From Candidatus Shapirobacteria bacterium (GTDB taxonomy: Bacteria > Patescibacteriota > Microgenomatia > UBA12405), in assembly GCA_041665485.1 (NCBI GenBank), contig JBAYIT010000001.1, positions 140,270-204,269 on the forward strand: a stretch of DNA of 64,000 nt, in the 5' to 3' direction. Numbering within the stretch: the first letter of the stretch is position 1; the number at the start of each line of letters is the position of its first letter. This document shows positions 3,586-58,699 of this stretch, piece by piece. Under the pieces are notes generated by a model. The model was not told the DNA's origin. It searched no databases and saw nothing but the letters and a program-made list of their open reading frames with translations. A program made the position numbers and the translations under genes.

Positions 3586-4506
3586 ATGGAACAGCATTCG
3601 ATCCCGCAACAGATAAGCTCGTATGAGTTTAAGCTGGTGGGGGAAATGACTTTGAAACAGTTTTTGAAGGCGGCAGTGGGGATAGTACTGGCCCTAATGA
3701 TTAATGCCACTGGACTGGTGTTTTTTATAAAATACCCCTTAGTTTTGGCGCTTGGAGGCGGAGGTTTGGCTTTGGCGTTTGTGCCTTTTGAAGACAGACC
3801 GCTGGAAACTTGGATTTTGTCTTTTTTGAAGTCAATTTATACTCCGACGATTTTGATTTACAAAAAAAGGGCTGATAAAAACTGGCTTAATATTGACTAC
3901 ACTAGGGCCAAGTTTATTGAGGAAGAAAAAGAAGAGGAGGAAAAAGCGATTCCGATGAAGAATAAAAGCAAAGTGGCAGAATTTATCGATTCGTTGCCAT
4001 CGGTAAAAAGAGCGGATGAGGAGGGTGAGAATCTAGAATCTGGAATCAAGAATCTAGATTTGAAAACCAAAAACCAAGAAATGGGAGAACAGAAATTAGT
4101 AACTAGTAACAAGATACAAGAAGGAGCCGAGCAAAAGACAACTGACTGGAGGGGGGCAGCGGCAAATTTGGGATTGAAATCGGAAAAATTAGAAGCAACG
4201 GCAAAAGCAACTTTTGGATCGATACCAATGCCAGATATTCCCGACCTACCAAACCTGTTGGTTGGAATGGTGACTAGCAAAGAAGGAAAAATAGTTGACG
4301 GAGCAATCGTTGAAATTTTGGACAACTTGGGCAACCCAGTAAGAGTATTAAAGACTAACCCCTTGGGACAATTTAGAACCTCGACACAATTAAGTGACGG
4401 AAAATATCTGGTAGTGACTGAAAAAGAAGGGTTTGGCTTTGATAGAGTAGAAATAAACCTATCAGGAGGGATAGTTGAGCCGATTAAAATCCAGGCATTG
4501 GCCTAA
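3586..4506 (+). CDS. PrgI/VirB3-like T4SS membrane protein with long C-terminal extension
   Basis: N-terminus SYEFKLVGEMTLKQFLKAAVGIVLALMI followed by two TM helices matches PrgI-family proteins that precede VirB4 in Gram-positive-type T4SS; the C-terminal ~190 aa contain an in-frame GAATCTAGAATCTGGAAT repeat and a beta-sandwich-like tail. Confidence 0.5.
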   Translation: MEQHSIPQQISSYEFKLVGEMTLKQFLKAAVGIVLALMINATGLVFFIKYPLVLALGGGGLALAFVPFEDRPLETWILSFLKSIYTPTILIYKKRADKNWLNIDYTRAKFIEEEKEEEEKAIPMKNKSKVAEFIDSLPSVKRADEEGENLESGIKNLDLKTKNQEMGEQKLVTSNKIQEGAEQKTTDWRGAAANLGLKSEKLEATAKATFGSIPMPDIPDLPNLLVGMVTSKEGKIVDGAIVEILDNLGNPVRVLKTNPLGQFRTSTQLSDGKYLVVTEKEGFGFDRVEINLSGGIVEPIKIQALA

Positions 4507-4538: not shown

Positions 4539-5252
4539 ATGGCAACTGACCCGTTAAAAGTCGCAATTAGAGGAACAACACAAGACCACCTACCAATGGA
4601 GGATGTGATTGATGATGTGGTGTTAATGAAAAACGGCGAATGTGCAGCGATAATGCAAGTTTCGTCGGTAAACTTCGACCTTTTGTCGGAAAGAGAGCAA
4701 CAAGCAATGGTCTATGCCTATGGAGGGATTTTAAATTCCCTTAATTTTCCAATCCAAATTGTAATTTATTCAAATACCAAGGATGTTGGTTTTTATCTTT
4801 CGAACCTTAAGATAGCAGAAGAAAAACAGACTAACGGATTATTAAAAACGAGGATTCAGTCGTACCGCAAATTTATCGAGGAAACGGTTAGGAAAAATGA
4901 TGTTTTGTCAAAGTCGTTTTACGTGATAGTCCCCTTCTCAATTTTAGAGTTAGGAATTAAAAGTGCCCAAAGCTCAATTACCGGAAGCTTTAAACTACCA
5001 TTTGGTAATCACAACAAACAAACAGAGTTGCCATTTGAAAAAAACTATATTATAGAAAAGGCTAAAGCTAGTTTAAAACCAAAAAAAGACCATATTATTA
5101 GGTTGTTTGCAAGGTTGGGGTTAGAGATTAAAGCTTTAAATACCAAAGAAATAATTGAATTACTTTATAAAATTTACAATGAAGACACGGCGGCTAATCA
5201 AAAATTACAAACATTAAATTACGATGCGCCAGTGGTTACCGCTAAAATTTAG
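4539..5252 (+). CDS. VirB4 N-terminal-domain-like protein (possibly a split VirB4 segment)
   Basis: EDVIDDVVLMKNGECAAIMQVSSVNFDLLSEREQQAMVYAYGGILNSLNFPIQIVIYS matches the conserved N-terminal segment of VirB4/TrbE/CagE ATPases (DG..L.KDGSL.A..E..G.D..S..EE......N.AL). Confidence 0.5.
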   Translation: MATDPLKVAIRGTTQDHLPMEDVIDDVVLMKNGECAAIMQVSSVNFDLLSEREQQAMVYAYGGILNSLNFPIQIVIYSNTKDVGFYLSNLKIAEEKQTNGLLKTRIQSYRKFIEETVRKNDVLSKSFYVIVPFSILELGIKSAQSSITGSFKLPFGNHNKQTELPFEKNYIIEKAKASLKPKKDHIIRLFARLGLEIKALNTKEIIELLYKIYNEDTAANQKLQTLNYDAPVVTAKI

Positions 5253-5293: not shown

Positions 5294-7924
5294 ATGGGAC
5301 TTAATATATTTGCAAAAAAGAAAGCAGACACAACAGCCGTGGCATCGGTTGCGCCACCTGTCGAGAAAACTAAACCTACCGGGGAAAAAGCGTTTGTGGA
5401 GGGATTAGTGTCGACCAAAGACATTATTGCTCCGGGAGCACTGGAGGTTGATTTTAATGAAATTAGAATAAATAACAAGTACTATCGGACCTGTTTTATT
5501 GCCGGATACCCCCGGTTTGTGGGAATGAACTGGCTCTCTCCATTAATCAATTTTGACGCATCGCTTTCGGTGTCGATGTACATCTACCCAACCGACGGCA
5601 AACAAATTTTGGACGATCTTAGGAGAAAAATTGCAGAAATGGAGGCGGAGATAAGTACTGATATTCAAAGAGGAAGGGTGGTTAATCCAACAACACAGGC
5701 AAAGTTGGAAGATGCACTTAATTTACAGGCAGATTTGGCCAAAGGAGAGGAGAGATTTTTTCAATTTGGGTTATATGTGACAATGGCAGCGGAAACAAAA
5801 GACGACTTAAATCGGATTACAAAAAACCTTGAGGCAGCGTTGGGGGCCTTAATGATTAGTAGTAAGAAATCAACCTTGCAGATGGAGGAAGGGTTTATAA
5901 CAACATTGCCTCTGGGAGCCGATAAATTGCAAATAACGAGAAACATGGACACGACGTCGTTGGCGACAACTTTCCCGTTTGTTAGCTCTGATCTTTCCGA
6001 CGATAAGGGGATAATGTATGGAATTAACGAACACAACGGCAGTTTGGTGATTTTTGACCGGTTTTCAATGCCAAACTACAACTCAGTCGTTTTTGCCACT
6101 GCCGGAGCGGGAAAATCATATTTAATTAAATTGGAAGTAATGAGGTCGTTAATGCTGGGAACAGAGATCATCGTTATTGACCCAGAAAACGAATATAAGG
6201 ACTTGTGCGAATCGGTTGGTGGGCAGTATGTGGCTTTTGGTTATAGTGAACCCTCAAAAATAAATCCTTTTGATTTGTCCTTGGTAACAGATGAAGGGGA
6301 AAACGCCCTTAATTCAAAGATTTTGGATTTGCACAAGTTGCTTAAGATAATGATTGGAGAGATGGACCCGATTGAGGAGTCGATTCTAGATAGGGCGGTA
6401 ATGGACGCCTATAAAATGAAGGGAATTACACCGGATCCAGAGACACAAAATAAAGAACCACCTCTAATTGAGGATTTGTATAAATCATTGATTGGAATGG
6501 AGGAGGAAAAAGCGAGAGGTTTGTCGGCCAGAATTGAAAAATATATTAAAGGGTCGTTTGCCGGTATTTTTAATCAAAAAACAACGGTTAGTTTAAACAA
6601 CAAGTTTGTGGTTTTTGGGATTAGAAATTTGGAAGATGCTCTGCGGCCGGTGGCAATGCAAATAATTCTTGACTATATTTGGACGACAGTAAAGAAAAAT
6701 TTAAAAAAGAGAATATTGGTGGTTGATGAGGCGTGGTACTTGATGCAATATGATGATTCAGCGGCGTTTTTGAGAGGAATTGTGAAGAGAGGGAGAAAAT
6801 ATTACTTGGGGGTAACAACAATAACCCAAGATGTGGACGACTTTTTACAAACGCCATATGGCAAAGAAATTGTGACCAATAGCTCGATTCAAATATTGCT
6901 AAAACAGCATAGCGCGGCAATAGATATGATTGGTGATGTTTTTTACCTGTCTGAAGGGGAAAAACAGCTATTAATGTCAGCGGCGAAGGGCGAGGGGATA
7001 TTTTTTGCCGGGCAAAATCATGTAGCGATTAGAGTGATTGCCTCGGAAGAAGAGCATCTTCTGATTACATCAAACCCAGAGGAAGTAATGAAGATTAAGA
7101 ATCAACGAATCAAAGAATCTGCGAATTTAGATTTAAGCAATACAAATATTACAAAACCAGAACCTGCTGAACCGGCTCCCGTGATACAACCTAATGATCC
7201 CGTGGTGCCAGTCGATCCAACTCCTACATCGATCCCAACCCCAGTGGTTGAGCCGTCTATCAGCCCGGTTCCAGTAGTTCCGGCTCCTGTAGCTCAAACC
7301 CCCGTAGTACCAGTAGTAAGTGAACCAAGTAAACCCAGATTTGTAACGGAGGTAGTGGGTGTACCTCAAGAAACTAGCCATGAGGAATTGCTATCAAAAA
7401 AGATTAATGAAATGGAGGAACTGGAAAAGGCCGAATTGGCAAAATTCGAGGAACAGAAAAAGATAGATGACGAGAAAAAGAAGAAAGAGGAAGAAGAAAA
7501 GGCAAAAATGGGTGGATTTGGAGGAAGTAGTTTTGGGGGGTTACCCAAATACGGCGATTTATTTAAATCAGCCGGAAAGTTACCACCACTACCTCCCCTA
7601 CCACCTTTACCTAAATATCAAGCACCAACAGTAAATAACCAAACAATTTCTCCGTCTGAGACGGATTCCGCTTCGCTTCACAATAACCAAATTCCAAGTT
7701 CCAAACAGGAAGATAAAAAAACTAAACCAATATTCGTGGATATGACGGAGAAACAAATACCCCAACCACTGCAATTGCAGAAAAAAGCAAAACCCATTTT
7801 TGAAGAATCTACGAATCTAGAATCTGGAATTAAGAAAGACAACAAAAATGAGGAAATAGGAACAAAAAAAGACGACAAAGTAAACAAATCCTATGATGAG
7901 TTGTTTGGAAACGGGATTGTTTAG
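5294..7924 (+). CDS. virB4: VirB4/TrbE/PrgJ-family type IV secretion ATPase with Pro-rich and Lys/Glu-rich C-terminal tail
   Basis: Walker A VFATAGAGKSYL, Walker B ILVVDEAWYL and the VirB4 N-domain segment YYRTCFIAGYPRFVGMNWLSPLI; about 180 aa of tail contain a PxP-rich stretch, PPLPPLPPLP and a repeat-encoded ESTNLESGIKK. Confidence 0.85.
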   Translation: MGLNIFAKKKADTTAVASVAPPVEKTKPTGEKAFVEGLVSTKDIIAPGALEVDFNEIRINNKYYRTCFIAGYPRFVGMNWLSPLINFDASLSVSMYIYPTDGKQILDDLRRKIAEMEAEISTDIQRGRVVNPTTQAKLEDALNLQADLAKGEERFFQFGLYVTMAAETKDDLNRITKNLEAALGALMISSKKSTLQMEEGFITTLPLGADKLQITRNMDTTSLATTFPFVSSDLSDDKGIMYGINEHNGSLVIFDRFSMPNYNSVVFATAGAGKSYLIKLEVMRSLMLGTEIIVIDPENEYKDLCESVGGQYVAFGYSEPSKINPFDLSLVTDEGENALNSKILDLHKLLKIMIGEMDPIEESILDRAVMDAYKMKGITPDPETQNKEPPLIEDLYKSLIGMEEEKARGLSARIEKYIKGSFAGIFNQKTTVSLNNKFVVFGIRNLEDALRPVAMQIILDYIWTTVKKNLKKRILVVDEAWYLMQYDDSAAFLRGIVKRGRKYYLGVTTITQDVDDFLQTPYGKEIVTNSSIQILLKQHSAAIDMIGDVFYLSEGEKQLLMSAAKGEGIFFAGQNHVAIRVIASEEEHLLITSNPEEVMKIKNQRIKESANLDLSNTNITKPEPAEPAPVIQPNDPVVPVDPTPTSIPTPVVEPSISPVPVVPAPVAQTPVVPVVSEPSKPRFVTEVVGVPQETSHEELLSKKINEMEELEKAELAKFEEQKKIDDEKKKKEEEEKAKMGGFGGSSFGGLPKYGDLFKSAGKLPPLPPLPPLPKYQAPTVNNQTISPSETDSASLHNNQIPSSKQEDKKTKPIFVDMTEKQIPQPLQLQKKAKPIFEESTNLESGIKKDNKNEEIGTKKDDKVNKSYDELFGNGIV

Positions 7925-7947: not shown

Positions 7948-10857
7948 GTGGCAACAGACATAAAACAAAGACGACAACCTATTGAAGTGGTGGGGGCCGG
8001 CGGATGGGATAGAAACGAACCAGAAACAGTGGGAGAAGTTTTGAGGTTACTTGAAGCTAGAGGCGGAAGAATAATAGACATAGAGGAAGAAGGTGGAGTT
8101 TGGCGGAAAATTGTTCAAATTTGTCAATACTTTGGAGTTACTGGTAAATTAAGCGTTGATCCGGTAGAGATCTTGAAGACACTTAAGATTGAGGCAAAAG
8201 ATGAAAATTTGACTTTGGATGAGGTGGCTGAAGAACTTAATAAAAGAATAGAAGAGGCGATTGAAAGGCCGGAGTTGGAGACTAAGACGTTGAATTCGGA
8301 ACAACTAAAGATATTGCTTAGGAAACTTGACGACCATTTGATGGAGCAAGGAAAAACAACAGAGGCAGTTGAGAGAGTGGCAAAAACATACGGCCTCGAC
8401 AAGGACGGAGAGGCTTTATTGGCCCAGGCGGTGGCGAGAAAAAAAGAAATTGAGATAAAACTGGCGAAACATGGAGCTGATGTCATCAGTGACAGCCAGG
8501 TAGTAGCTGAAGCAATGTTGGTTGAGGAAGGGTTGTCCAAAAAAGAAGCCAAAGAATCGGCAGAAAAGATGGTTGAAGTAGTGGTGGAAGATAGAACTAA
8601 TAGACCGAAAGTTAGAGAAGAGCTTGCTGGTGAGAGTGAATCAGTAAGACAGGTGGCGGAAGAGTTGACAGTAGCCTTGGAAATCGAAGAAAAGCTTCAA
8701 GATGCAACGAGGGAAACAGTGGAACTAACTAGAGAGACAGAGGCAAAATTGAGACCAGTGCTGGGTGATAGGGCACTGGAAGTGGCAGTGGCGGTGGCAA
8801 ATGGAACCGAACCAGAGAAGGCAGTGCCAACGGAATTAAAAATAGAAAGAAGAGAGAGGGAGGTAGTGATAGTAGAACTAGGACATGAAAGAGAAACGAT
8901 AATGGTCGAACAACAAATCAGAGAAAAGGTAAATATTGTTTCGACTAGATTGGCAGAAGTGTTGGGAATAGAAAGGGATGGTGTGGCAGTTGAAGAGATA
9001 AGACGAGAAGTGGAAGAAAGAATGAGGATGACAATGAGAGATGGAGGTGATTTGAACCGACCAGTGGCGACTGTAGTGTCAGGGACAGAAGGTGTAGTAG
9101 TACGAACGACAATGATAGGTAAAGTTGAGGAGGTGGTAGGGGCTGAAGTACCAACAGAAAAACTGAAGCAGGTAAATTCAATATTGGATGGCGCGAGTCA
9201 GGAGCTGAATAAATACCAAGATCAGTTTGGTGATGTTTTAGCTTGGCGCAAAAGACATACTCGGGAAGAAGTAATTGATGCGATGGTGGCTAGAAGCGGA
9301 GTAAGCAACCAGTCTATTGTCGATTATGCTTCGAGATTGGCTGATATAGCCGAGAAAGAGAGTCCAATTGAAAAATGGAAAAATGTAGCTTTAAGTAATC
9401 TTGAAGCACAACAAATGAATTTGGCCGAAAACGAAAGATTAAGCCCGACTCAAAGAGAAAATGCTTGGGATAAAATAGTGGGGATTTCAAAAATCCTAAG
9501 AATGTCGCCTGACGTTTTTGATGCTACAGTAGCAGCTAGGAATAAAGTGGTTGAAGCGATTGGTGAAACAGCCGTTGATGGAGTAAAACTAGGTAGAGTC
9601 GGTATTTATGATCAGATATTTAAGTTGGCGGGGGAAAATGAGGGGCTGAAATCGATGTTGAATTTTGTTCAAAAGAAAGTGGCCTTTTTTGAACAATTTA
9701 ACAACCTTGGCTTTCAAATATTTAGCCGATTGGGCGGAGAAGAAATGGCGCTTAATTTTGCCGGCAGAATTGCCGGACAAGCAGGGGTGGAGTTTGCCAA
9801 AGAAGGTTTAATGATAATGGCGGAACAAGGAGCTGGGGCAGGAATAAGATTTGGATTGGAGAAAATTGCTGGGCAATTAGCGGTAAGATTTGGGATAAAC
9901 TCGGCGACTACAGTTGCAACTAGCGGGGCAACAACTGGATCAATTGCGGTGGCGGGAGCGGCGACAGGCCCACCAGGATGGGTGATAGCAGCAATAGTAA
10001 TTGGTGTTCAATTGGTAGGAAAGGCGGTGGGGTGGGTGGTGGGGAAAATTAAGGGATTTTTTGGAGGAATGCTGGGGGCACTGGGAATAGATGCCAAGAT
10101 GTTTGATGCGGTTGGGGGAATTAAAAACTTTTTGAAAGAGAATGGTATGGGACTGTTGAACAAGCCGATGGAATTGATTGAGGGTTTACTGAATATAATC
10201 GGGATGGGGTGGATAGCAAAGGATTTGGGGAACTTAATAATTTGGGTGGTTAGTGGAGTTTTTGTGGGGTTTTTACTGATTTCTTCAATGCTGACGGCTC
10301 CGATTGCCTCACTTTTTCTGCCACCGGGGAGAGGGGTGGGAGGGGCGGTGGTGGACCAGACGACGCTAAACGGCGGTTATTTGGCGGCGGCGCCATGGAG
10401 CGGTGACATAAACGAACTGCCAGACTCCTGCCCACCAGATAGCTTGCCAATTGGGGGAACGGTGACACAGGGACCTTTAGCAAAAGACTGCTCTCATGCT
10501 CTTTACAAAAACGTCATTGATGTGGCCGGACCGAAAGATAATATCTTATCAACTCATGATGGAGTAGTAGAAGCAGTAATAAATATGGGTGATGGGTATG
10601 GGCAATATGTTGATATTAGGGGAAGGTGTGGCACGACTACTTTTGTAACCCGTTATGCGCACATGGTTGTTGGTTCACCTAAAGTGAAGGTGGGAGAAAA
10701 AGTGGAAAAAGAGAAAACAATACTTGGGACGCGAAATAGTTCGGGAAATTCAAGCGGAAATCACTTACACTATGAAATTAGAGGACTAACAACAGAATAT
10801 TTTCATGACTGGGAGGGATGTTGTAATGAAAATAATGGTACTTTTTGTAAAAATTAA
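7948..10857 (+). CDS. large coiled-coil / Gly-rich membrane protein with C-terminal M23 (LytM) peptidase domain
   Basis: 969 aa. The N-terminal ~470 aa are Glu/Arg/Lys-rich and predicted coiled-coil. The middle has Gly/Ala-rich hydrophobic segments. The C-terminus carries M23 motifs HDGVV...YAHM...GNSSGNHLHYEI. Confidence 0.7.
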   Translation: MATDIKQRRQPIEVVGAGGWDRNEPETVGEVLRLLEARGGRIIDIEEEGGVWRKIVQICQYFGVTGKLSVDPVEILKTLKIEAKDENLTLDEVAEELNKRIEEAIERPELETKTLNSEQLKILLRKLDDHLMEQGKTTEAVERVAKTYGLDKDGEALLAQAVARKKEIEIKLAKHGADVISDSQVVAEAMLVEEGLSKKEAKESAEKMVEVVVEDRTNRPKVREELAGESESVRQVAEELTVALEIEEKLQDATRETVELTRETEAKLRPVLGDRALEVAVAVANGTEPEKAVPTELKIERREREVVIVELGHERETIMVEQQIREKVNIVSTRLAEVLGIERDGVAVEEIRREVEERMRMTMRDGGDLNRPVATVVSGTEGVVVRTTMIGKVEEVVGAEVPTEKLKQVNSILDGASQELNKYQDQFGDVLAWRKRHTREEVIDAMVARSGVSNQSIVDYASRLADIAEKESPIEKWKNVALSNLEAQQMNLAENERLSPTQRENAWDKIVGISKILRMSPDVFDATVAARNKVVEAIGETAVDGVKLGRVGIYDQIFKLAGENEGLKSMLNFVQKKVAFFEQFNNLGFQIFSRLGGEEMALNFAGRIAGQAGVEFAKEGLMIMAEQGAGAGIRFGLEKIAGQLAVRFGINSATTVATSGATTGSIAVAGAATGPPGWVIAAIVIGVQLVGKAVGWVVGKIKGFFGGMLGALGIDAKMFDAVGGIKNFLKENGMGLLNKPMELIEGLLNIIGMGWIAKDLGNLIIWVVSGVFVGFLLISSMLTAPIASLFLPPGRGVGGAVVDQTTLNGGYLAAAPWSGDINELPDSCPPDSLPIGGTVTQGPLAKDCSHALYKNVIDVAGPKDNILSTHDGVVEAVINMGDGYGQYVDIRGRCGTTTFVTRYAHMVVGSPKVKVGEKVEKEKTILGTRNSSGNSSGNHLHYEIRGLTTEYFHDWEGCCNENNGTFCKN

Positions 10858-19980: not shown

Positions 19981-19992
19981 CGCAACTTAGTT

Positions 19993-30954: not shown

Positions 30955-31011
30955 AAGGAGAATGTGCGGAGTTTTTTGTAGAGATAAGAACTAAGAGATA
31001 AGAACTAAGAA

Positions 31012-32969: not shown

Positions 32970-32982
32970 GAACACAGAACTA

Positions 32983-36142: not shown

Positions 36143-37912
36143 TTACAGTTTCCCATCTTGCACTTTCTTTCCTATGTCTTGGACTGCTTTTCCAGCCCTG
36201 CCGGTTAGAGATGGATTCATACCCCAGGGAAGTTTGATTTTACTAAGTGGGCCTGTGTTGCTGGCAATACGAGAACCAACCTCTTGAATTAGTGGTCCAC
36301 CAATCTCTTGTCTTGCTGTAGATTCGATAAATTTATTGCTATAGCTTTGACCAATGGCTTGGGACCAGGGGGATGGTTTAAGGGAGAAGATAAACTGGGG
36401 GATCATCTCGGGCATTTTGGAGACAAGACCAAGGCCGGCGAGGCCGAGGCCGGCTTTGACGATGGCGTTGGCACTCCACCAGTTACTACCAGCGGCACCA
36501 ATGAGGAGTTGGCCGGGAATCCAGAGACTTTTACCGGCATCACTTAGGATTGTTTCGCCAATAAGGTTTAAAAGAACTAAGAATATAGTGGTGATGGGGA
36601 AAATGGCGATATAGCCAATAAGATCATTAATCCAAGAGGAAAATCCCATTTTGGAGCCGGGGAAAGCACCCATGGCAATTTCTAGTGGGGCAATAATAAT
36701 TTTAAAGATAATGGTGATATAGGCTTTGATTAGACCAAAAAATAGCTTGATGAGCCAGAAGGTCATGATGATGGTCATGACAAGAGAAACTAAGACTCCA
36801 CCGATGGTGCCACCGACGAGACCGCCGGTAATACCCATTCCGATTCTGGCAATATCGTTGCCTACTCCTCCCATAATAAGGTTGAAAATACCACCACCAA
36901 GGGTGCCCAGAACGACACTACTAACCATACCACTTAGGGCGTAGAGGGCCCAAGAGGGCATAGCATGATAGACCAGACTTTGATAAGTATTAAAGCTGGG
37001 GTTGGTGAGATGTTCGAGGGTGTAGGGACTGGTACCGGTAAATTGTTGATAAGCAGATTGTATAGCTGTTCCTGCCCAAGAGGTGGGCATAATATTATTA
37101 AAGATTCTCCAGGGGTTAAGAAGGTCACCGCCGAAGGCGGTGCCAGTAATGGTGTAGAACATGGCAATAACCAGGCCGGCGAGGAGATAGATAAAATCAA
37201 TGGCCAGACCGGCAATAGCGTAAGAGAAAGTGACGAGAATGAGAGTGGTGATGAGTCCCGGGATGGCATTTTGGATGGTGATGACGGCTTGGGGAGAGAT
37301 TTTGACCCGCAAAATTATCATGATGCCGATGGCGATAAAAACAATAGAAGATAAAACATAAACAATGTTTCTGAAACCACGCCAAAGAGGAAGAAGAGGC
37401 TGGAGACCGGCAAAACCAACACCTTGAGCGTAGGCTGGCTTACCTAAAAAATTATCTTTAACAGAGGCGATATATTCTATTCCAGATGCTTGGGGATAAT
37501 TTAGAGTGGCAATCATGCCAGAGAGATTGCCAGCAACACCTCCGGGAACCCATTGAGAAGAAGCGATGGGCTGACCGTTTTCAATAGAAGAAAGTAAACC
37601 ATCAGGAATGTCAATAATGTTGGTTAGAATGTTGAGAAAGTGAAAAATGGTGGTGAAAATGGTTGAACCGAACCAACCTTCGACGCTACCACCGGCTTTG
37701 ATAGCGTCGCGCTGATAGCGAATTTCAGATTTTTCGGCGGCGACAGGAACAGCAACTAGAAACAAGAAACAAAAACCGAGAACTAAGAGAATTTTGGTGG
37801 ATTTGGAGAGCTTGGGAAGAAGGGGGAGGTCACGACGATTAAGATTGGAATCTACGAATCTACGAATCTGGAATCTGGAAAAAAATGATGAAAAGCGAGA
37901 ACTTAGAGACAT
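36143..37912 (-). CDS. polytopic membrane protein, possibly VirB6/TrbL-like (start uncertain)
   Basis: 589 aa: signal/anchor, an extracytoplasmic domain of ~130 aa, then eight or more TM helices with Gly-rich loops; the track N-terminus is coded by GAATCTACGAAT repeats; lies downstream of the pilin-like array. Confidence 0.4.
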   Translation of the reverse strand: MSLSSRFSSFFSRFQIRRFVDSNLNRRDLPLLPKLSKSTKILLVLGFCFLFLVAVPVAAEKSEIRYQRDAIKAGGSVEGWFGSTIFTTIFHFLNILTNIIDIPDGLLSSIENGQPIASSQWVPGGVAGNLSGMIATLNYPQASGIEYIASVKDNFLGKPAYAQGVGFAGLQPLLPLWRGFRNIVYVLSSIVFIAIGIMIILRVKISPQAVITIQNAIPGLITTLILVTFSYAIAGLAIDFIYLLAGLVIAMFYTITGTAFGGDLLNPWRIFNNIMPTSWAGTAIQSAYQQFTGTSPYTLEHLTNPSFNTYQSLVYHAMPSWALYALSGMVSSVVLGTLGGGIFNLIMGGVGNDIARIGMGITGGLVGGTIGGVLVSLVMTIIMTFWLIKLFFGLIKAYITIIFKIIIAPLEIAMGAFPGSKMGFSSWINDLIGYIAIFPITTIFLVLLNLIGETILSDAGKSLWIPGQLLIGAAGSNWWSANAIVKAGLGLAGLGLVSKMPEMIPQFIFSLKPSPWSQAIGQSYSNKFIESTARQEIGGPLIQEVGSRIASNTGPLSKIKLPWGMNPSLTGRAGKAVQDIGKKVQDGKL

Positions 37913-37931
37913 GGAAAGATTATACTAAAAA

Positions 37932-37973
37932 GAGTTACGAGTTACGAGTTATCAGTTACGAGTTTGAAATCGG
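37932..37973. repeat. word-repeat family B (AGTTACGA variants), representative copy
   Basis: GAGTTACGAGTTACGAGTTATCAGTTACGAGTT; other copies at about 20764-20793, 26957-26990, 42800-42840, 56395-56420. Confidence 0.8.
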
Positions 37974-38058
37974 GAATCTACGAATCTGCCTGCCGGCAGG
38001 CAGGTCTGGAATTTACGAATTTAGAACCAGAAATTGGGTTTACGATTTACAAAATAAA

Positions 38059-40326
38059 TTAGAGTTGCCAGGAGGCGGGGAGGAGTTGGGGGTAGAACTT
38101 GTCGTGGTTAATGTCGGTTTGGGCGCCGGGGTGGGCGATAGGGAGCTGGGCGCCACCGCCGGCAGTGGAGTCGGAACCGGTGCGGGCCAATTTGCCTTGG
38201 TCTTTTTGAGGAGTGAGATTGAAGTAGGTTTGAGTGAGACTACCTTCGTTCTTAGCGATGTTGGCGGGATAATCGACTTCTACTTCAACTTTGGCAGTGA
38301 GAGTGGTGTCTTCGGTTATTTGCCTCCAGAGATTTTTAACCCAGGCAACAAAATCAAGAGGCGAGGGTTTGTTTTGAGTGTTGTAGCCACCACCCATGGA
38401 ACAAACATCGGGCTTGGGAATACTACTTTGTTGCTTGTAGGGAATCCACCAAGCGGTGGCCTCACCGGCTTGACCACTGCTCATGGCGGCTAAATTGGGC
38501 ATGGTGTGGGGGTAAGGAGTAGGTTCGACGCCACCACCGGCGCCAACATTTTTAACAGTTGTTTCCAGATTGGCGGAAGCGCAACCGGGATTGGTGGCGA
38601 GAAAATAGGTGTAGCCGTTTTTGTAGCAACCACTGTAGGTTTCCCAAAAAGGGATGCCAGTGCGCTTTTCGTAACCACCACCTTCGTATTGTTTGGAGAG
38701 GAGTTCGCGAACATCACCGGGGACACCGTCTTCTACAATTTTTCCTTGAACACATTTGACGGCGAATTGATTGATTTTACCGGATTTAATCATGCCCCAA
38801 ACATATTCACTCATAAACATTGGTCGGCCGGCGCCTTGGCCGGATTTGTCCATGTCACGACAACCGCCAGTGTCGTGATAGGCGGTGCCGATTTGCTGGT
38901 CGTTGGCAATAAGATAGGGGTTGCGTTTAAGTTTGTCTTCTTCAAGAGAACGGACGGCTTCCTGGAAAAGTTTCCATTTTAGGTCAAGTTGCATGCAATA
39001 ACTCATGGAGCGGGTGACGGGGTTGTAGCCAAAACGATTGAATTTGCCGAACTCGCTTGCTAGAGAAAGAGGATCAGTGCGATTGGCGTGGACAATGTAT
39101 TGCTGGTGGTGGGTGGGGAGCTGGGAATAACTAGTGTAAGTGCAGTATTTGGCCGGGCCGAGGTTGGTTTGAGGGCCATCGACTTTGACTTCTTCTTCAA
39201 CTGAAGTAACGGTAAGTGGCTCGGTTTCGGTGGTGGTGGAACCGTCCTGATTTTTAGTAGTAGTTTTTTTGGGGGAATAAGATTGTTTGATGCTAGCCTG
39301 AAAGGTGCAGATTTGACCACCTTTGAGGTTGGCGTAGGCGTTAGTGTCGTAAATGCCGTTAATGTAACCGCGGGGATGAAGATAGGGGGTAGTGTTGACG
39401 GCGGGGGGGAGGAGGTCGTCGATTGACTCGCCACCGAGCTTGCTGGTAGGTAGAGGGGTAACGGAGGGACGGTGATTGGGGTTGGGGAGATTGGTTTGGT
39501 CGCATTTGCCGGAGATGGCATTGGCGACGTTGTCGTTGATAGTCCAGGAACCACCACTGAAATTACCGGGGGCGGCGGTGAAAAGAAAATAGGCAAGAAC
39601 GTCTGGTTTTGATTGCCATTGACTGATGATATTTTCGCCACAAAAGAAGTTGATAAAAGCCTGATCGTCATAGATTAGACCGTTTTTGTCGACGCCGATT
39701 TCAGTAAAAAGAAATTTTTTGCCAGCGAGGGGGCCTTTGTCATAATTAATAGCGGTGTCAGAGCGGTAAGGGTGATAGGAAATAATGTCAAAATAGGAAA
39801 AGGCCTTACTGGTGACGGGGTAATTGGGATTTTGAGGATCGAGAGCGGGGGAGATAAGGGTGGCGTTTTGAAGTTGGCTTTTGATGTCTTTAATGAAATT
39901 GTTGGCTCGGGAAATGGATTCTTCCAGAGTAATGTAGCCATCGGGAGCGCGCCGTTCGTAGTCTTGTTCAAGTTCGTTGAAAGGTTCGACATAAACGGTT
40001 TTACCGGAGGCGGCGAATTGGTTGATGGCTTGGCTCCATTCGGAAGCAATGGTGGCCTGTTGTTCTTTGGAACCGAGCATGAGTTGGCCGGTTTCGGTCC
40101 AAGAGGAATGAATGCGGACAACGACATTATTGGCCTGAATATCGGCTGTGAGCAGTTCTTGGGGAGAGCCGGGGGCGTAGAGAACCCAGTTTTGAACGTC
40201 TTGGTTAACAGTGTAACCGGCGGAGCTGGGATCGTTAATAAGATTGAGACCGGGGTCGGCGGCATTAACCGGTTGGGGAGAAATAAGAACTAAGAGATAA
40301 GAGATAAGAGATAAGAGATAAAACAC
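38059..40326 (-). CDS. secreted protein with N-terminal clan GH-A (GH5-like) glycoside-hydrolase domain (GTG start)
   Basis: Signal peptide with AxA site ...VLISPQPVNA/ADP; VEPFNELEQDY gives an NEx acid/base candidate; KFLFTEIGVD gives a TE nucleophile candidate, about 100 aa after the NEx; about 470 aa of C-terminal region are unrecognised; the hydrophobic core of the signal peptide is coded by the reverse complement of the GAGATAAGA repeat. Confidence 0.5.
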   Translation of the reverse strand: MFYLLSLISYLLVLISPQPVNAADPGLNLINDPSSAGYTVNQDVQNWVLYAPGSPQELLTADIQANNVVVRIHSSWTETGQLMLGSKEQQATIASEWSQAINQFAASGKTVYVEPFNELEQDYERRAPDGYITLEESISRANNFIKDIKSQLQNATLISPALDPQNPNYPVTSKAFSYFDIISYHPYRSDTAINYDKGPLAGKKFLFTEIGVDKNGLIYDDQAFINFFCGENIISQWQSKPDVLAYFLFTAAPGNFSGGSWTINDNVANAISGKCDQTNLPNPNHRPSVTPLPTSKLGGESIDDLLPPAVNTTPYLHPRGYINGIYDTNAYANLKGGQICTFQASIKQSYSPKKTTTKNQDGSTTTETEPLTVTSVEEEVKVDGPQTNLGPAKYCTYTSYSQLPTHHQQYIVHANRTDPLSLASEFGKFNRFGYNPVTRSMSYCMQLDLKWKLFQEAVRSLEEDKLKRNPYLIANDQQIGTAYHDTGGCRDMDKSGQGAGRPMFMSEYVWGMIKSGKINQFAVKCVQGKIVEDGVPGDVRELLSKQYEGGGYEKRTGIPFWETYSGCYKNGYTYFLATNPGCASANLETTVKNVGAGGGVEPTPYPHTMPNLAAMSSGQAGEATAWWIPYKQQSSIPKPDVCSMGGGYNTQNKPSPLDFVAWVKNLWRQITEDTTLTAKVEVEVDYPANIAKNEGSLTQTYFNLTPQKDQGKLARTGSDSTAGGGAQLPIAHPGAQTDINHDKFYPQLLPASWQL

Positions 40327-40331
40327 GGTTA

Positions 40332-40337
40332 ATTATA
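40332..40337 (-). promoter_or_regulatory. -10 box TATAAT (minus strand) 5 nt upstream of the GTG start of the GH-A-like gene (leaderless)
   Basis: Minus-strand reading AGTTATAATTAACCGTG. Confidence 0.4.
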
Positions 40338-40341
40338 ACTT

Positions 40342-40380
40342 AAAGTCCGAAAAGTCCAAAAAGTTAGAAAGTCCAAAAAG
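40342..40380. repeat. word-repeat family C (AAGTCCAAAA variants), representative copy
   Basis: AAGTCCGAAAAGTCCAAAAAGTTAGAAAGTCCAAAAAG; other copies at about 46056-46098, 47145-47185, 47535-47580, 58325-58375. Confidence 0.8.
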
Positions 40381-40385
40381 CTATT

Positions 40386-40793
40386 CTAGCCGGGGATTTG
40401 GAAGATAGTGAGAGTGGAAATACCGGTGAAATTTTGGATAAGGCGTAAGATTAGCCAAGATGCAATGACACCAACTAGGCCGATAATGGCAGAAGTGAGG
40501 GTGCCAGCAGCGCCGGCGGCTTTTTTAGGATCGCCGTTACTTAGGACATAATTGAACCCACCAACAATAAACATAACCAAGAACACTAAACCGGCAATAG
40601 TGACGACGACAGATAGAGTGTTGTAAAAGAGACATTCGAGACCCTGAATAGTGGCAACGTCAGGGTTGGCTTTATCGACACAACGGGGGTCGCGAGCTTT
40701 CCAGTCTTGTTGGGCGAGGGCGGGGGCGGGGGCGGGAGAGATAAGAACTAAAAGATAAGAGATAAGAACTAAGAGATAAGACAGGCGGGACAT
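40386..40793 (-). CDS. pilin-like two-TM 'GDSKK-loop' protein, paralog 6 (start trimmed to ATG at 40791-40793)
   Basis: [29 protein letters not shown] signal-like segment coded by the repeat, then TM1, loop NGDPKKAAGAAG and TM2; the track ORF to 40949 would overlap paralog 1. Confidence 0.5.
   Translation of the reverse strand: MSRLSYLLVLISYLLVLISPAPAPALAQQDWKARDPRCVDKANPDVATIQGLECLFYNTLSVVVTIAGLVFLVMFIVGGFNYVLSNGDPKKAAGAAGTLTSAIIGLVGVIASWLILRLIQNFTGISTLTIFQIPG
40731..40790. repeat. word-repeat family D (GAGATAAGA / ACTAAGA variants), representative copy
   Basis: Other copies at about 12565-12605, 25855-25895, 26405-26440, 27110-27310, 30975-31010, 32960-33006, 33396-33426 (inverted), 40285-40320. 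Confidence 0.8.
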
Positions 40794-40800
40794 AAGTGGA

Positions 40801-40840
40801 TTATAGCAAACTAAAACCCCTCCGATAGCTATCGGAGGGG
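40801..40840 (-). terminator. Rho-independent terminator candidate after pilin paralog 1
   Basis: Perfect 24-nt palindrome CCCCTCCGATAGCTATCGGAGGGG (40817-40840) followed on the minus strand by TTTTAGTTT. Confidence 0.5.
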
Positions 40841-40867
40841 TTTGGAAAACAAGATCAGTTTCCAGAC

Positions 40868-41236
40868 TTATGGCTGGAAAGTGGGAACAGTCAAGGTTCC
40901 GAGAATGTCGATACCAAAGACGGTACCAATTAGCTTCATGATAGCCCAAGCAGCGAAGACAATGGCCAAACCAATGAGAGCATTGGTGATTTGATTTCTG
41001 GCACCTTCAACATTTTTACTATCGCCTTGGCTCATGACCCAACGAAGGCCACCCCAGACGAGCATAAAGAAAAACACAAGGGCAACGACCAACATAATAA
41101 GGGAGATGGCGCCGGAGATTATACCGCCAGCAGTAAGACCAGTAAGGGAATCCCACCCGCCACCAGCTTTTGGCTGGAGTTTAATTTGTTGTTGGGCGTA
41201 AGCCGGAACAACCAGAGAAAGTTGACTTAGGTTCAT
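40868..41236 (-). CDS. pilin-like two-TM 'GDSKK-loop' protein, paralog 1 (TrbC/VirB2-like architecture)
   Basis: 122 aa: signal-like N-terminus with AYAQQ, TM1, loop SQGDSKNVEGARNQ and TM2. Confidence 0.55.
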   Translation of the reverse strand: MNLSQLSLVVPAYAQQQIKLQPKAGGGWDSLTGLTAGGIISGAISLIMLVVALVFFFMLVWGGLRWVMSQGDSKNVEGARNQITNALIGLAIVFAAWAIMKLIGTVFGIDILGTLTVPTFQP

Positions 41237-41291
41237 AGTTTTTTAATTTATAAGTTAAATTTGGTTTATTTTAGCAATAAACCTTAATTTA

Positions 41292-41612
41292 TTAAATAGG
41301 GAGGAAAATTTGGAGATTTTCCAGATCCTTAAGGCCGAAGACCCAGCCGACTAATTTAAGGACAGCAAAGAGAGAGAAAAGAAGAACAAGACCAATCATG
41401 CCGTTGGTGAGCTCTTTTTTGGACTCTTCAATTTTTTTGCTGTCGCCTTGGCCGTCAATGAGATGAAAAGCAGCCATGAAGATAAACCAACAGAAATAAA
41501 GAACGCCAACTAACATAAAGATGGAGAAAACCGATTGAATAACGTTGTTAAGATAGATGATGGGTTCGTTGACCTGGGCTCCCGGAGTTTTGAGAATTGG
41601 GTTGGTGATCAT
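41292..41612 (-). CDS. pilin-like two-TM 'GDSKK-loop' protein, paralog 2
   Basis: 106 aa: TM1, loop DGQGDSKKIEESKK and TM2. Confidence 0.55.
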   Translation of the reverse strand: MITNPILKTPGAQVNEPIIYLNNVIQSVFSIFMLVGVLYFCWFIFMAAFHLIDGQGDSKKIEESKKELTNGMIGLVLLFSLFAVLKLVGWVFGLKDLENLQIFLPI

Positions 41613-41974
41613 AGGCCAAGTTTATCAAACATACTATTGAGATCGAGGACATTTTCCAGACCGAGGAGCTTGGCCATAAGAGCACCCAGGCCGAGAGAAA
41701 CAACAACAATAAATAAACCTAAAATGCCGTCGGTAAGGCGCTTTTTGGCATCTTGGGCTTTTTTGGCATCACCTTCGGAAGAAATGTAGGCATAGCCGGC
41801 AAAAATAATCTGGATAGAGAAGTAAATGACAGCAACAACGGTGAGGATGCCGATAACACGACCGACGGTGAGCTCGAGAGCGCTGGTGGCAGTTTTGGGA
41901 GAATTGGGATTTTGACCCGGACCACTTAGACCGTAATTGTTGTGAGGAATTTGGGCTAAAAGTTTATTGAACAT
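41609..41974 (-). CDS. pilin-like two-TM 'GDSKK-loop' protein, paralog 3 (start trimmed to ATG at 41972-41974)
   Basis: TM1, loop SSEGDAKKAQDAKK and TM2; the stop of the preceding paralog overlaps. Confidence 0.5.
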   Translation of the reverse strand: MFNKLLAQIPHNNYGLSGPGQNPNSPKTATSALELTVGRVIGILTVVAVIYFSIQIIFAGYAYISSEGDAKKAQDAKKRLTDGILGLFIVVVSLGLGALMAKLLGLENVLDLNSMFDKLGL

Positions 41975-41978
41975 AAAA

Positions 41979-42335
41979 TTAATTTGGCCCCCAAATAACA
42001 GGTTTGGTGGCGGAGATACCGGTGAGGCGCTCGATAACACCGGAAAGAATAAAAGCCGAAGAAATAATAACCAACCCTAAAATACTTTGCCAAATTTTGG
42101 CCCAAGCCAGCTCGGTTTTTTTGGAATCACCATTGGCAGAAATATATTCGTAACCGGCGATAATGAATTGAAAAACAACATAAATAGCGCCGATAGTGCC
42201 AACAATTTTAAAAATATTGCTCATGAAGATAAAGAGACCGGAGCCGGCATCGCTTTTATATGCAGTGGGGTTGCCAACTGTACCAAAAATTCCGGCTGCA
42301 GAAGCGGGAATTTTAGAAACTAGAAACCCCCCCAT
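41979..42335 (-). CDS. pilin-like two-TM 'GDSKK-loop' protein, paralog 4 (start uncertain; track ORF extends to 42488)
   Basis: TM1, loop SANGDSKKTELAW and TM2; upstream 42339-42420 holds a 13-nt inverted repeat and is more likely intergenic. Confidence 0.45.
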   Translation of the reverse strand: MGGFLVSKIPASAAGIFGTVGNPTAYKSDAGSGLFIFMSNIFKIVGTIGAIYVVFQFIIAGYEYISANGDSKKTELAWAKIWQSILGLVIISSAFILSGVIERLTGISATKPVIWGPN

Positions 42336-42444
42336 GCCCGTCATCGCGAGGCCGAAGGCCGTGGCGATCCCAACGAGATTGCTTCGTCCCCCGATAGTTA
42401 TCGGGATCCTCGCAATGACGTATGGGGTTATTTGTTTGATCATG

Positions 42445-42780
42445 TTAGATGGTGGGGTTGAGGATTTTGAGGCCAGTAATAACTTCAACTATTTGAATAA
42501 TAAAGTAAGCTAAAAAGACAACTAAAAAACCAATAAGGGCGTTGGTGATGGCTCCAGATGATTGAGCTGTTTTTTTAGAATCACCGCTACCGGCATTAAT
42601 TATAAAGGTAAGACCGCCGAAAATCAAAAGAGCCAGAAAAACAATACCAGCAACAGTGAGAGCGTTTTTGAGAATAATGGAGACGAGAACGGCCAGATTG
42701 GGATAGGAAGAGGAGATGGTGTGGCCACTGCCAAGAGGAGTATCACCAATTTGAACTTGAGCAAGAACTGGTTTAAACAC
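42445..42780 (-). CDS. pilin-like two-TM 'GDSKK-loop' protein, paralog 5 (first gene of the array; GTG start)
   Basis: 111 aa: TM1, loop NAGSGDSKKTAQSSG and TM2. Confidence 0.55.
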   Translation of the reverse strand: MFKPVLAQVQIGDTPLGSGHTISSSYPNLAVLVSIILKNALTVAGIVFLALLIFGGLTFIINAGSGDSKKTAQSSGAITNALIGFLVVFLAYFIIQIVEVITGLKILNPTI

Positions 42781-42786
42781 GGGTTA

Positions 42787-42792
42787 ATTATA
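42787..42792 (-). promoter_or_regulatory. -10 box TATAAT (minus strand) 6 nt upstream of the GTG start of the pilin-like array (leaderless)
   Basis: Minus-strand reading CATAGTATAATTAACCCGTG, near-identical to the context of the GH-A-like gene. Confidence 0.45.
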
Positions 42793-42893: not shown

Positions 42894-43637
42894 ATGCTTA
42901 ACAAAATAATAGTATTTGTGTTGGCCGGAGCATTAGTTGCCAGCTGGCGAACAACTCCGATTTTGGCAGTAGAGCATTGGAACGGGTGGAATGGAATGAG
43001 GGTGATAGTGGGGATGGCAATTGAGCGAGGAGTTCCGGCGGAAACGATTGTTCTATTATTGTTATTGCCAGTAGTGGCGACAATGGTGGGGATTATTCAT
43101 TATTTGGTAGGTTTTACCGGTTACGGGATTTTTATGCCAACGATGGTGGCAGTGGTGTTGACGGCAACAGGAATTCCGAGCGGTTTATTACTTTTTGGCC
43201 TGATTTTGATGATATCGAGCGGAGGAAATATGCTTTTGAAGCGACTCAAACTTCATTTTTGGCCGTCAAGATCGATTAATTTAGTAATGATTGGACTGGG
43301 GACGTTTGGGTTGATGCTGTTGGGGACAGTAACTCCGTGGATAGATTTGAGTAAGATATCGATTTTCCCGGTGTTATTTATGGTGATGTTGGCGGAGGAG
43401 TTTGTGAGAACGCAGTTGATTAAAAGCCGAAAAGAGGCGGTGAAATTGACTTTGGGAACATTGATTTTAGCGGTGGTGGGGGCAGTAATTATGGATGTTG
43501 GCTGGATTAGAGAGGCGGTGTTGTTAAATCCGGAAATTGTTTTGGTGGTGGTAGCGGTTAATTTGCTGGTGGGAAACTATAGTGGGATTAGACTGACGGA
43601 GATTGCTAGATTTAAGAAAGCGATTCGGAAAAAATAA
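42894..43637 (+). CDS. seven-TM membrane protein (resembles the 7TM module found next to ATP-grasp peptide ligases)
   Basis: 247 aa with about seven hydrophobic helices; first gene of an operon with ATP-grasp genes. Confidence 0.45.
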   Translation: MLNKIIVFVLAGALVASWRTTPILAVEHWNGWNGMRVIVGMAIERGVPAETIVLLLLLPVVATMVGIIHYLVGFTGYGIFMPTMVAVVLTATGIPSGLLLFGLILMISSGGNMLLKRLKLHFWPSRSINLVMIGLGTFGLMLLGTVTPWIDLSKISIFPVLFMVMLAEEFVRTQLIKSRKEAVKLTLGTLILAVVGAVIMDVGWIREAVLLNPEIVLVVVAVNLLVGNYSGIRLTEIARFKKAIRKK

Positions 43638-43676
43638 GAATTTACGAATATACGAATCTACGAATTAAGATAAAAA

Positions 43677-45041: not shown

Positions 45042-45140
45042 AAACCCTTCCCCTAACCCCTTCACCTCCGCCTGTCGTCGGACAGGTTGACAGGGCAGGG
45101 GAAAAAATAATTTTTAATTTTAAATTTTTAATTTTAAAAA

Positions 45141-46100: not shown

Positions 46101-46107
46101 AACATAA

Positions 46108-46677: not shown

Positions 46678-46731
46678 ATCTTAGATTTTGGTTCTTAGTT
46701 CTTAGATACTGGGTACTGGATGCAAAATGTG

Positions 46732-46740
46732 TGGTATAAT
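46732..46740 (+). promoter_or_regulatory. extended -10 promoter TGGTATAAT; ATG 7 nt downstream (leaderless RimK-2)
   Basis: TGTGGTATAATCGGCCAGATGG; the track ORF start at 46727 lies inside the promoter. Confidence 0.4.
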
Positions 46741-46747
46741 CGGCCAG

Positions 46748-48903: not shown

Positions 48904-48905
48904 AC

Positions 48906-58527: not shown

Positions 58528-58699
58528 TAAATTGTTGATAAATTTTAATAAAGCAAATGGTGGATGCCTAGGTAGTCGAGACCGATGAAGGACGCAGAAG
58601 GCGGCGAAACAGATTGGGGAGTTGCCAACAAACGGTGATCCAATCAAATCCGAATGGAGAAATCCCGGCCCGAGCAATCGGGCTGAGCCACTGTTTCAC

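Follow-up and report, generated by a model that had tools for sequence, protein, structure and literature searches.

What is built by a gene cluster in which six small, mutually divergent membrane-protein genes stand in tandem ahead of one gene for a secreted protein and one for a polytopic membrane protein? Here we address this question for a chromosome segment of Candidatus Shapirobacteria bacterium (class Microgenomatia, Patescibacteria/candidate phyla radiation, CPR); "the window" denotes that whole stretch of 64,000 nucleotides (nt). By open reading frame (ORF) calls, the cluster runs on the minus strand from 42792 to 36143: six consecutive pilin ORFs (40386-42780, here P1 to P6), then a gene for a protein of 755 amino acids (aa), then a 589-aa gene. 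The original prediction read these as VirB2-type pilins, a secreted hydrolase and a VirB6/TrbL-like protein which, together with a VirB3/VirB4/M23 locus elsewhere in the window, would make up a split type IV secretion system (T4SS). Our analysis confirms the observation and largely supports the interpretation: a pilin-family match and a fold similarity to VirB6 were both found, each in its favour. We conclude that the cluster is very probably the envelope-spanning half of a chromosomal monoderm-type (MPF-FATA-like) T4SS, for which we propose a mechanism by analogy. The parts found are six PF18895 pilins, a polytopic protein with fold similarity to VirB6/DotA, a glycoside hydrolase clan A (GH-A)-like secreted protein between them, and an ATPase half about 30 kb away.

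Six pilin lineages in a fixed order

We compared the array with 13 related loci (L001/L002/L004, copies of a single locus that agree in coordinates and scores; L005-L012; and L015-L018). Every related locus has six pilin genes, or four in the one locus where the contig stops inside the array. Next comes a gene for a secreted protein of 295-1119 aa and then, wherever the contig is long enough, one for a homologue of the 589-aa protein; synteny is kept as far as the contigs reach. In most loci the flanks match the window as well, with 7TM_transglut and ATP-grasp genes diverging upstream and ftsH and DUF4012 genes downstream.

Within this layout, each pilin finds its best BLAST match at its own position of the other locus in 500 of 522 comparisons, the remainder involving the truncated locus L008, and this positional orthology holds too in two more distant loci, L015 and L016. 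Mean identity over 103 core columns is 43-62% between orthologues and 21-30% between paralogs, and six average-linkage clusters coincide with the six positions for 69 of the 70 sequences. The positional orthologues of P1 are 42-59% identical. P5 is the most conserved position, with 59-75% identity to its orthologues; it is identical to the NCBI entry 'MAG: pilin [Candidatus Shapirobacteria bacterium]', and in a search with it the best 120 matches listed are all close Shapirobacteria and Woesebacteria orthologues. The pilin orthologues evolve no faster than the VirB6-like protein encoded downstream (43-62% vs about 40-45% identity). The six pilin genes are thus old, distinct and kept in order. 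Since order-conserved, distinct lineages are combined here with probable co-transcription, six non-redundant roles are favoured over a repertoire for variation. This positional orthology is our main addition to published knowledge.

Assignment of the small proteins to a pilin family

Each of P1-P6 has two strong hydrophobic segments around a short loop, which reads, from P1 to P6, GDSKK, GDSKK, GDAKK, GDSKK, GDSKN and GDPKK. The tandem two-transmembrane (TM) architecture and the conserved loop that had been pointed out are therefore confirmed, with G-D-[SPA]-K-K as the consensus, in paralogs that share 18-36% pairwise identity. All six match PF18895 (T4SS_pilin; gathering score 26.6 bits) at E values of 5e-10 to 5e-5, far beyond chance; four lie above the gathering score and P2 (26.2 bits, E 8.4e-6) and P3 lie slightly under it, the scores being modest throughout (24-40 bits). 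When 24 positional orthologues are included, 30 of 30 scanned sequences match PF18895 at E < 0.01, and no unrelated family scores well among them. TrbC/VirB2 (PF04956) is matched by two of these 30 sequences at E of about 8e-4, and among the window paralogs by P3 with E 0.22. P1 and P5 also show a weak match to NCBIfam NF045849 (Mbov_0395, a "pilin-like conjugal transfer protein" of a mycoplasma integrative and conjugative element, ICE), and the pilin family profile aligns its own loop with that of PrgF from pCF10 (SxGDxKK vs SNDDPRT; pairwise E 0.019). Of the features that mark VirB2/TrbC proteins, the two-TM topology and the short charged loop are present, whereas a sequence match to PF04956 or to a solved pilin is not. 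The proteins are filed in PF18895 and, by sequence, not in PF04956, yet they most likely work like VirB2.

The N-termini differ among the paralogs. All six had been predicted to begin with a signal-like sequence; we find a clear signal-peptide-like N-terminus in P6, a weaker one in P5 and none in the other paralogs. P1, P3 and P4 instead have a leader of 7-13 residues ending in a conserved 'AQ', which the alignment with orthologues shows to be kept at nearly all positions. The VirB2 of Agrobacterium is cleaved between Ala and Gln, and the conserved 'AQ' near the N-terminus of the window pilins resembles that leader cut; processing at this site is a lead, not a result. From the positive-inside rule, both pilin termini are predicted to lie outside. 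Conserved in P6 are two Cys residues of the outer N-tail and an IPG at the C-terminus. For P2, a GC-rich hairpin, described below, falls in the would-be N-terminal extension, so that translation probably begins at ATG 42344 or 42335; the resulting proteins of 121 or 118 aa are favoured because they are consistent with the many P2 orthologues that, in the alignment, begin directly at MLG(I/L)FG.

The 589-aa protein as a VirB6 candidate

The 589-aa protein contains about 7-8 TM segments and an outer loop of 120 residues, and its C-terminal tail is basic. A search for its family detects 593 members; among the best 120 of these, none has a functional name or a precomputed Pfam domain, and the named ones come mostly from Shapirobacteria or Woesebacteria. 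Residues 306-462 match PF04610 (TrbL) weakly. For the AlphaFold model (mean predicted local distance difference test, pLDDT, 72), Foldseek places TrwI/VirB6 chains of the R388 machine on top at non-significant E values of 0.3-3, and against 48,164 chains the best large structural matches are DotA and TrwI/VirB6, which are T4SS channel proteins. The gene lies with other T4SS genes, following the pilin array in the window and in every sufficiently long related locus, and neither T4SS locus of the window has another VirB6 candidate. Taking this sequence and fold evidence together with the fixed place after the pilins, we rate a divergent VirB6 as likely but not proven; family membership is unproven. 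Of the VirB6/TrbL role originally suggested, the weak TrbL match, the structural resemblance to TrwI and DotA and the fixed synteny stand, while the PF04610 score under its cut-off and the negative hhalign comparisons given below do not support it.

A secreted protein with probable add-on enzyme domains

The 755-aa protein is identical to NCBI WCV93_01020, and its N-terminal domain (about 260 residues) reaches a pLDDT of about 90 in the structural model. In Foldseek, this domain retrieves GH26 (lichenase), GH1, GH30 and GH5 structures at E values of 1.7e-4 to 1e-2 with probability 1.0. N117-E118 directly follows strand 110-114 (strand 4) and E209 ends strand 204-210 (strand 7), as in the clan GH-A arrangement, and all three residues are invariant in 19 sequences. 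The model thus shows the barrel, the predicted acid/base Glu in an N-E motif and the predicted nucleophile Glu that define clan GH-A. By sequence, Pfam GH5 is matched only at E 0.06, and one relative (P0143) scores above the PF11790 cut-off ("glycosyl hydrolase catalytic core"). The hydrolase-like nature that had been proposed for this protein is therefore borne out at the level of the clan: on the model, the domain is a GH-A-like TIM barrel of unassigned family, not a VirB1/SLT domain, and a putative enzyme.

This domain is rare, with 28 clusters among 1.84 billion representatives in an exhaustive search, and in nearly all of them it forms the N-terminus of a 500-1100-aa protein. In at least 10 relatives (846-1092 aa), an SLT lytic transglycosylase domain is appended at the C-terminus. 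No SLT match (PF01464) is seen in the window protein: its alignment with one relative (P0011) ends where that protein's SLT linker starts, and no CHAP or lysozyme domain was found in it either. Residues 300-755 are poorly modelled, Cys-containing and fast-evolving, and residues 291-755 gave nothing meaningful against PDB sequences.

In the two most distant syntenic loci the middle protein is shorter: 418 aa in L015 and 295 aa in L016. The former matches window residues 568-723, in the C-terminal region, with E 4e-8; the latter has no significant match to the 755-aa protein. We therefore rejected the GH-A domain as a constant component of the module. The hydrolase, predicted as a part of the module, is present in the window but not constant, and because its domain is missing from these distant modules it is not essential to the machine. 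The enzyme domains look like add-ons to a variable secreted protein.

The distant ATPase locus

The predicted VirB3/VirB4/M23 locus is there: PrgI (VirB3), TrsD, a VirB4 of the CD1110 family and an M23 protein are encoded about 30 kb from the pilin module (Table 1), beside dnaA and dnaN (13066-15789). A CD1110-lineage VirB4 with adjoining TrsD and PrgI, on the chromosome and near dnaA, is what characterizes the MPF-FATA-like T4SS of Patescibacteria.

Table 1. Positions of the genes and signals of the pilin cluster and of the ATPase locus in the window
Feature	Coordinates	Strand	Description
P1	42445..42780	-	111 aa; VirB2-like two-TM hairpin; loop GSGDSKK; PF18895 27.8 bits; TM 28-66 and 74-107
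P2	41979..42443	-	start uncertain: ATG 42443 gives 154 aa, in-frame ATG 42344 121 aa, ATG 42335 118 aa
P3	41609..41974	-	121 aa; loop EGDAKK; PF18895 23.6 bits, E 5.4e-5; TrbC E 0.22
P4	41292..41612	-	106 aa; loop QGDSKK; PF18895 32.8 bits
P5	40868..41236	-	122 aa; PF18895 39.1 bits; named 'pilin' by NCBI
P6	40386..40793	-	135 aa; PF18895 39.7 bits; own TATAAT-N6-ATG promoter; heptamer-repeat-coded signal peptide
755-aa secreted protein	38059..40326	-	signal peptide; GH-A-like (beta/alpha)8 domain about 25-280 (model); Cys-containing, fast-evolving about 300-755; own TATAAT-N5-GTG
589-aa polytopic membrane protein	36143..37912	-	candidate divergent VirB6/TrbL; own TATAAT-N6-ATG promoter
P1 -10 box TATAAT	42787..42792	-	6 nt before GTG 42780; leaderless unit P1-P5; promoter scan 10/12 matches
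P6 TATAAT	40805-40800	-	N6, then ATG
755-aa gene TATAAT	40337-40332	-	N5, then GTG
589-aa gene TATAAT	37924-37919	-	N6, then ATG
Intrinsic terminator	40814..40843	-	perfect 30-nt palindrome (100% complementary), then TTTTAGTTT; after P5
GC-rich REP-like hairpin	42340..42419	-	about 80 nt; between P1 stop and conserved part of P2
PrgI (VirB3-like)	3586..4506	+	PF12666 E 1.9e-4, under family cut-off
TrsD-like (VirB4 N-domain-like)	4539..5252	+	NF041427 E 2.4e-9, under family cut-off
VirB4-like ATPase, CD1110 (monoderm MPF-FATA) family	5294..7924	+	NF045971 389 bits (cut-off 325); PF19044 E 8e-31
969-aa protein	7948..10857	+	C-terminal M23 peptidoglycan endopeptidase domain; PF01551 E 2.2e-12

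Promoters, hairpins and repeats

P1-P5 are tightly packed, the P3 stop overlapping the P4 start (ATGA), and the leaderless promoter described before P1 is present, as are those described for the 755-aa and 589-aa genes. TA(T/A/C)AAT followed by 4-8 nt and a start codon is found at 13 genes in the window, including ftsH, so that leaderless starts are a genome-wide trait rather than one specific to the cluster; the sequence points to frequent leaderless mRNAs in this genome. L018, a 70%-identical relative, has kept the arrangement. Examples of this type lie at 7948, 26177, 31029 and 33489 on the plus strand and at 37912, 40326, 40793 and 42780 on the minus strand.

The strong terminator that had been assigned to the end of P1 is not one. 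At that place we find a GC-rich hairpin resembling repetitive extragenic palindromic (REP) elements, with 12-nt arms (42408-42419 and 42340-42351; GTCATTGCGAGG / CCTCGCGATGAC) that differ by one mismatch, an internal motif GATTGCTTCG and no adjoining T-run; its RNA folds at -49.3 kcal/mol (z = -4.47). Partial copies lie at 19919-19982 and 26001-26034. Because it folds strongly and is absent from the other, orthologous loci, the element looks like a mobile REP or miniature inverted-repeat transposable element (MITE). The canonical terminator of the array stands after P5 (-26.3 kcal/mol, z = -4.4), and L018 has an analogous hairpin.

The 755-aa gene (40279-40321) and P6 (40737-40781) contain heptamer tandem repeats at the 5' end of their coding sequences, and in both the repeats code for the hydrophobic core of the signal peptide. 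In L018, heptamer repeats occupy these two places as well (7555-7582 and 8028-8050), with different units, GGTTTAC and CACTTGT. The gain or loss of one unit would shift the frame, and phase variation of P6 and the 755-aa gene is therefore possible; no copy-number variants were found by one exact-flank scan of a metagenome collection, where the source contig also went unmatched. Of additional note, leaderless promoters and heptamer repeats run across the whole window. Tandem repeats of 7-8 nt in 3-6 copies occur at a large share of its gene boundaries, often just upstream of -10 boxes (for example, at 4028-4058, 5249-5282, 12567-12608, 15796-15829 and 25858-25902, and also at 30980-31011, 32962-33006, 37932-37964 and 46066-46097), with recurring units such as AGAGATAAGAACTA, AGAATCTAC, GAGTTAC, TTAGATC and AAAGTCCAA.

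Proposed mechanism and alternatives

Based on these results, and by analogy with VirB2/VirB6 of R388 and PrgF/PrgH of pCF10, we propose the following scheme. The pilins would insert in the membrane as hairpins with both termini outside and the G-D-x-K-K loop in the cytoplasm, and the leader, where present, would be cleaved at the conserved Ala-Gln. VirB4 would then drive the extraction of the pilins and their stacking on the VirB6-like platform; the stacked pilins would make a tube in which the charged loop lines the lumen, and the tube would cross the cell's own wall and reach the host cell. The six pilins would be co-expressed, P1-P5 as one leaderless unit and P6 from its own promoter. Distinct and non-redundant structural roles are most likely, and interchangeable variants unlikely, given that every position is maintained as a separate lineage. 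The candidate for the major subunit is P5, and the other pilins would be minor, base or tip subunits. The secreted protein would open the wall or surface glycan locally through its GH-A-like domain and, in relatives, through the SLT domain as well.

We also put forward, tentatively and with considerable doubt, a more specific version of this scheme. Here all six pilins would be obligatory, co-assembled parts of one heteromeric conduit, with P5 as the major subunit and the others, including a disulfide-bearing P6, as base, adaptor or tip. The conduit would stand on a highly divergent VirB6 and be accompanied by a modular, fast-evolving secreted protein whose interchangeable wall-cutting domains (GH-A-like, SLT) act against the host envelope. 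It would be a feeding or injection tube of Microgenomatia epibionts, and the heptamer repeats might switch P6 and the secreted protein on and off.

Several observations weigh against this reading. We know of no pilus seen in any patescibacterium, and the co-assembly of six pilins is inferred solely from conservation and operon structure. Neither VirD4, VirB8 nor a relaxase was identified in the window. The pilin profile found no relevant match among PDB sequences, where no solved VirB2 was found by sequence, and hhalign of the pilin family against TrwL (R388) gave no signal. The 589-aa protein scores 19.6 bits against PF04610 (E 8.6e-4), under the gathering score of 25.9 bits, and just two of 39 family members match that model; hhalign of its family against the single sequences of TrwI (R388) and PrgH (pCF10) likewise gave no signal, and its fold matches are moderate for an all-helical membrane protein. 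Since single-sequence templates are weak, these nulls do not exclude homology of the pilins to TrwL or of the 589-aa family to VirB6. Finally, the GH-A-like domain has no match in the middle proteins of L015 and L016. From the lack of a sequence match to any solved pilin, together with the modest Pfam scores and the lack of a normal signal peptide in most of P1-P6, it might be supposed that the small proteins form no extracellular filament and are membrane-bound accessories of a translocon, or unrelated two-TM proteins of a holin-like or immunity-like kind. We consider this very improbable, given that all six match the same curated pilin family and nothing else convincingly, that a weak match links two of them to the Mbov_0395 pilin-like conjugal transfer protein, that their loop motif is common to PrgF, whose extrusion was shown by chemical labelling (bioRxiv 10.64898/2025.12.18.695078), and that their linkage to the VirB6-like gene is fixed. 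The 589-aa protein, for its part, could be an unrelated polytopic protein, for instance one for transport or wall synthesis, that happens to adjoin the array; besides the sub-threshold PF04610 match, the negative hhalign comparisons and the non-significant Foldseek values, its family profile has no match among PDB sequences. This is unlikely in our view: DotA and TrwI/VirB6 came out best among the large structural matches, the gene keeps its place in the pilin module in every locus that reaches that far, and no other VirB6 candidate competes with it in either locus.

A different objection leaves the pilins as pilins and concerns their use. The array could be an antigenic or host-range repertoire of interchangeable major subunits, one or few of which are used per host, a reading that has been offered for Patescibacteria (PMC12102498). 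The great divergence of the paralogs, the separate promoter of P6 and the heptamer repeats that could switch P6 and the 755-aa gene on and off would all suit it. What makes it decidedly unlikely is that each position forms its own orthologous lineage in a fixed order across all related loci, that the pilin orthologues evolve no faster than the VirB6-like protein, that P1-P5 share one promoter with P3 and P4 overlapping, and that no invertible elements or silent cassettes are seen in the sequence. We therefore prefer fixed, separate roles for the six pilins.

Comparison with known systems

The kind of system described here is already published, and six paralogs are ordinary for the phylum. A survey of Patescibacteria that covered 20 coding sequences (CDS) on each side of virB4 counted 441 arrays of 2-11 pilin genes in 383 assemblies, with 25% identity on average, most abundantly in Microgenomatia and Saccharimonadia (Quinonero-Coronel et al. 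2025, PMC12102498). A T4SS with a six-pilin array, essential by transposon sequencing (Tn-seq), is known from Southlakia epibionticum (Wang et al. 2023, PMC10633639; PMC12857230). The number of pilin paralogs, called unusual in the original prediction, is therefore not so. The window shares with the surveyed systems an MPF-FATA-lineage VirB4, TrsD, PrgI, the vicinity of dnaA/dnaN and a divergent VirB2-like array. It differs in that its array lies partly beyond the surveyed range of 20 CDS, and positional orthology and an array-linked GH-A/SLT protein are not reported there. The survey also found VirB6 homologues to be scarce in Microgenomatia, "suggesting extreme sequence divergence" (PMC12102498); the 589-aa family is a candidate for this missing VirB6.

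The closest counterpart is S. epibionticum ML1 (SEML1_0006-0019), which likewise has a chromosomal monoderm-type T4SS with VirB3-, VirB4- and VirB6-like proteins, wall hydrolases, six sequence-divergent VirB2-like pilins and no recognised relaxase. It belongs, however, to the class Saccharimonadia, whereas the window is from Microgenomatia, and its pilin genes are part of a single T4SS cluster; in the window, about 30 kb and about 20 genes separate the pilin/VirB6 module from virB4. Essentiality has been shown for the S. epibionticum array. The monoderm system of the Enterococcus plasmid pCF10 is similar in having a small two-TM pilin, PrgF (B2), modelled on a pentamer of the VirB6-like PrgH (B6), with a charged loop (D37, D38, R40; NDDPR vs GD(S/P)KK in the window) that lines the lumen. 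A 2025 preprint shows that PrgF cannot function without this loop and, by chemical labelling, that the protein is extruded, with the loop exposed on the cell exterior (bioRxiv 10.64898/2025.12.18.695078). Unlike the window, pCF10 is a conjugative plasmid with a relaxase and a coupling protein and has one pilin gene instead of six, and PrgH has 266 aa instead of 589; sequence similarity between the pilins is marginal.

Among Gram-negative systems, TrwL/TrwI of R388 (PDB 7o3v) and VirB2 of Agrobacterium share the pilin hairpin topology, and the 589-aa model resembles the TrwI fold. There is, however, no detectable sequence homology to Gram-negative VirB2/VirB6, the number of pilins differs, and the window has neither an outer-membrane complex nor a recognisable VirB5. 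Bartonella and Anaplasma phagocytophilum also have several divergent tandem virB2 copies, and antigenic or host-range variation has been proposed for the VirB2 paralogs of Bartonella and Anaplasma, as cited in PMC12102498. Whereas those arrays are thought to serve antigenic variation, the window copies are conserved orthologous lineages, which points to fixed, separate roles. As for the 755-aa protein, PrgK (pCF10), TraG (pIP501) and the VirB1 class are also large secreted or anchored T4SS-encoded proteins that combine wall-degrading domains, and orthologues of the 755-aa protein carry SLT; the window protein itself has the rare clan GH-A-like barrel instead of SLT, CHAP or lysozyme domains.

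Genomic neighbourhood

Divergent from the pilin promoter, the plus strand at 42894-47686 encodes a 7TM_transglut membrane protein, an ATPgrasp_ST protein and two RimK-like ATP-grasp ligases; the first two and at least one RimK-like ligase gene keep their position in L001, L015, L016 and L018. A functional tie of these neighbours to the pilins, for example, through peptide modification, is conceivable. Further along the plus strand, at 47695-50390 and 54829-56100, lie two proteins with weak cohesin-domain matches, one of which is a GH18 chitinase-like protein; L001 and L016 also have a GH18 gene near the module. Additional roles at the surface or in host interaction are possible for these genes. 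On the other side, convergent with the VirB6-like gene, an 872-aa protein (33489-36107, plus strand) has a charged, coiled-coil-like N-terminal half. We rejected it as a component of the system, as it has no Pfam or NCBIfam matches and the gene in the same slot of L001, L015 and L016 is dissimilar. NCBIfam offers no name for the 589-aa, 755-aa or 872-aa protein. An AAA_14/DUF4143 ATPase gene lies between DUF4012 and ftsH in the window (29363-30628, plus strand) and directly after the hydrolase gene in L018 (10271-11389), and L001, L015 and L016 lack it at both sites; the gene seems to be mobile within the syntenic region.

Elsewhere in the window, a 23S/5S rRNA pair occupies 58.5-62.4 kb. The 23S rRNA gene (58537-62103) is 3567 nt long vs a model of 2925 positions, with about 640 nt of insertions; it contains tandem repeats at 59935-60035 and no ORF of at least 150 aa. 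GC skew on the plus strand is positive in 31 of 32 2-kb bins (about 0.16-0.48), with one marginally negative bin (-0.03 at 2001-4000); its sign does not switch at dnaA/dnaN (13-16 kb), and it dips to about 0.2 across the minus-strand pilin cluster.

Significance for Patescibacteria

Few machines have been proved essential to the host-dependent growth of Patescibacteria, and the T4SS is one of them. The locus described here adds no new kind of system, and what it adds to published work is modest: a fixed pilin hexad, a candidate VirB6 for Microgenomatia, and a rare GH-A-like domain that is swapped for or combined with SLT. It does sharpen these into three testable points. In Shapirobacteria and related genomes, the pilins form a constant set of six separate lineages, which speaks for a heteromeric structure more than for antigenic variation. 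The 589-aa family is a candidate for the VirB6 that has been so hard to detect in surveys of Microgenomatia. Wall-degrading domains are exchanged on the array-linked secreted protein, which is therefore a plausible determinant of which host envelope can be breached.

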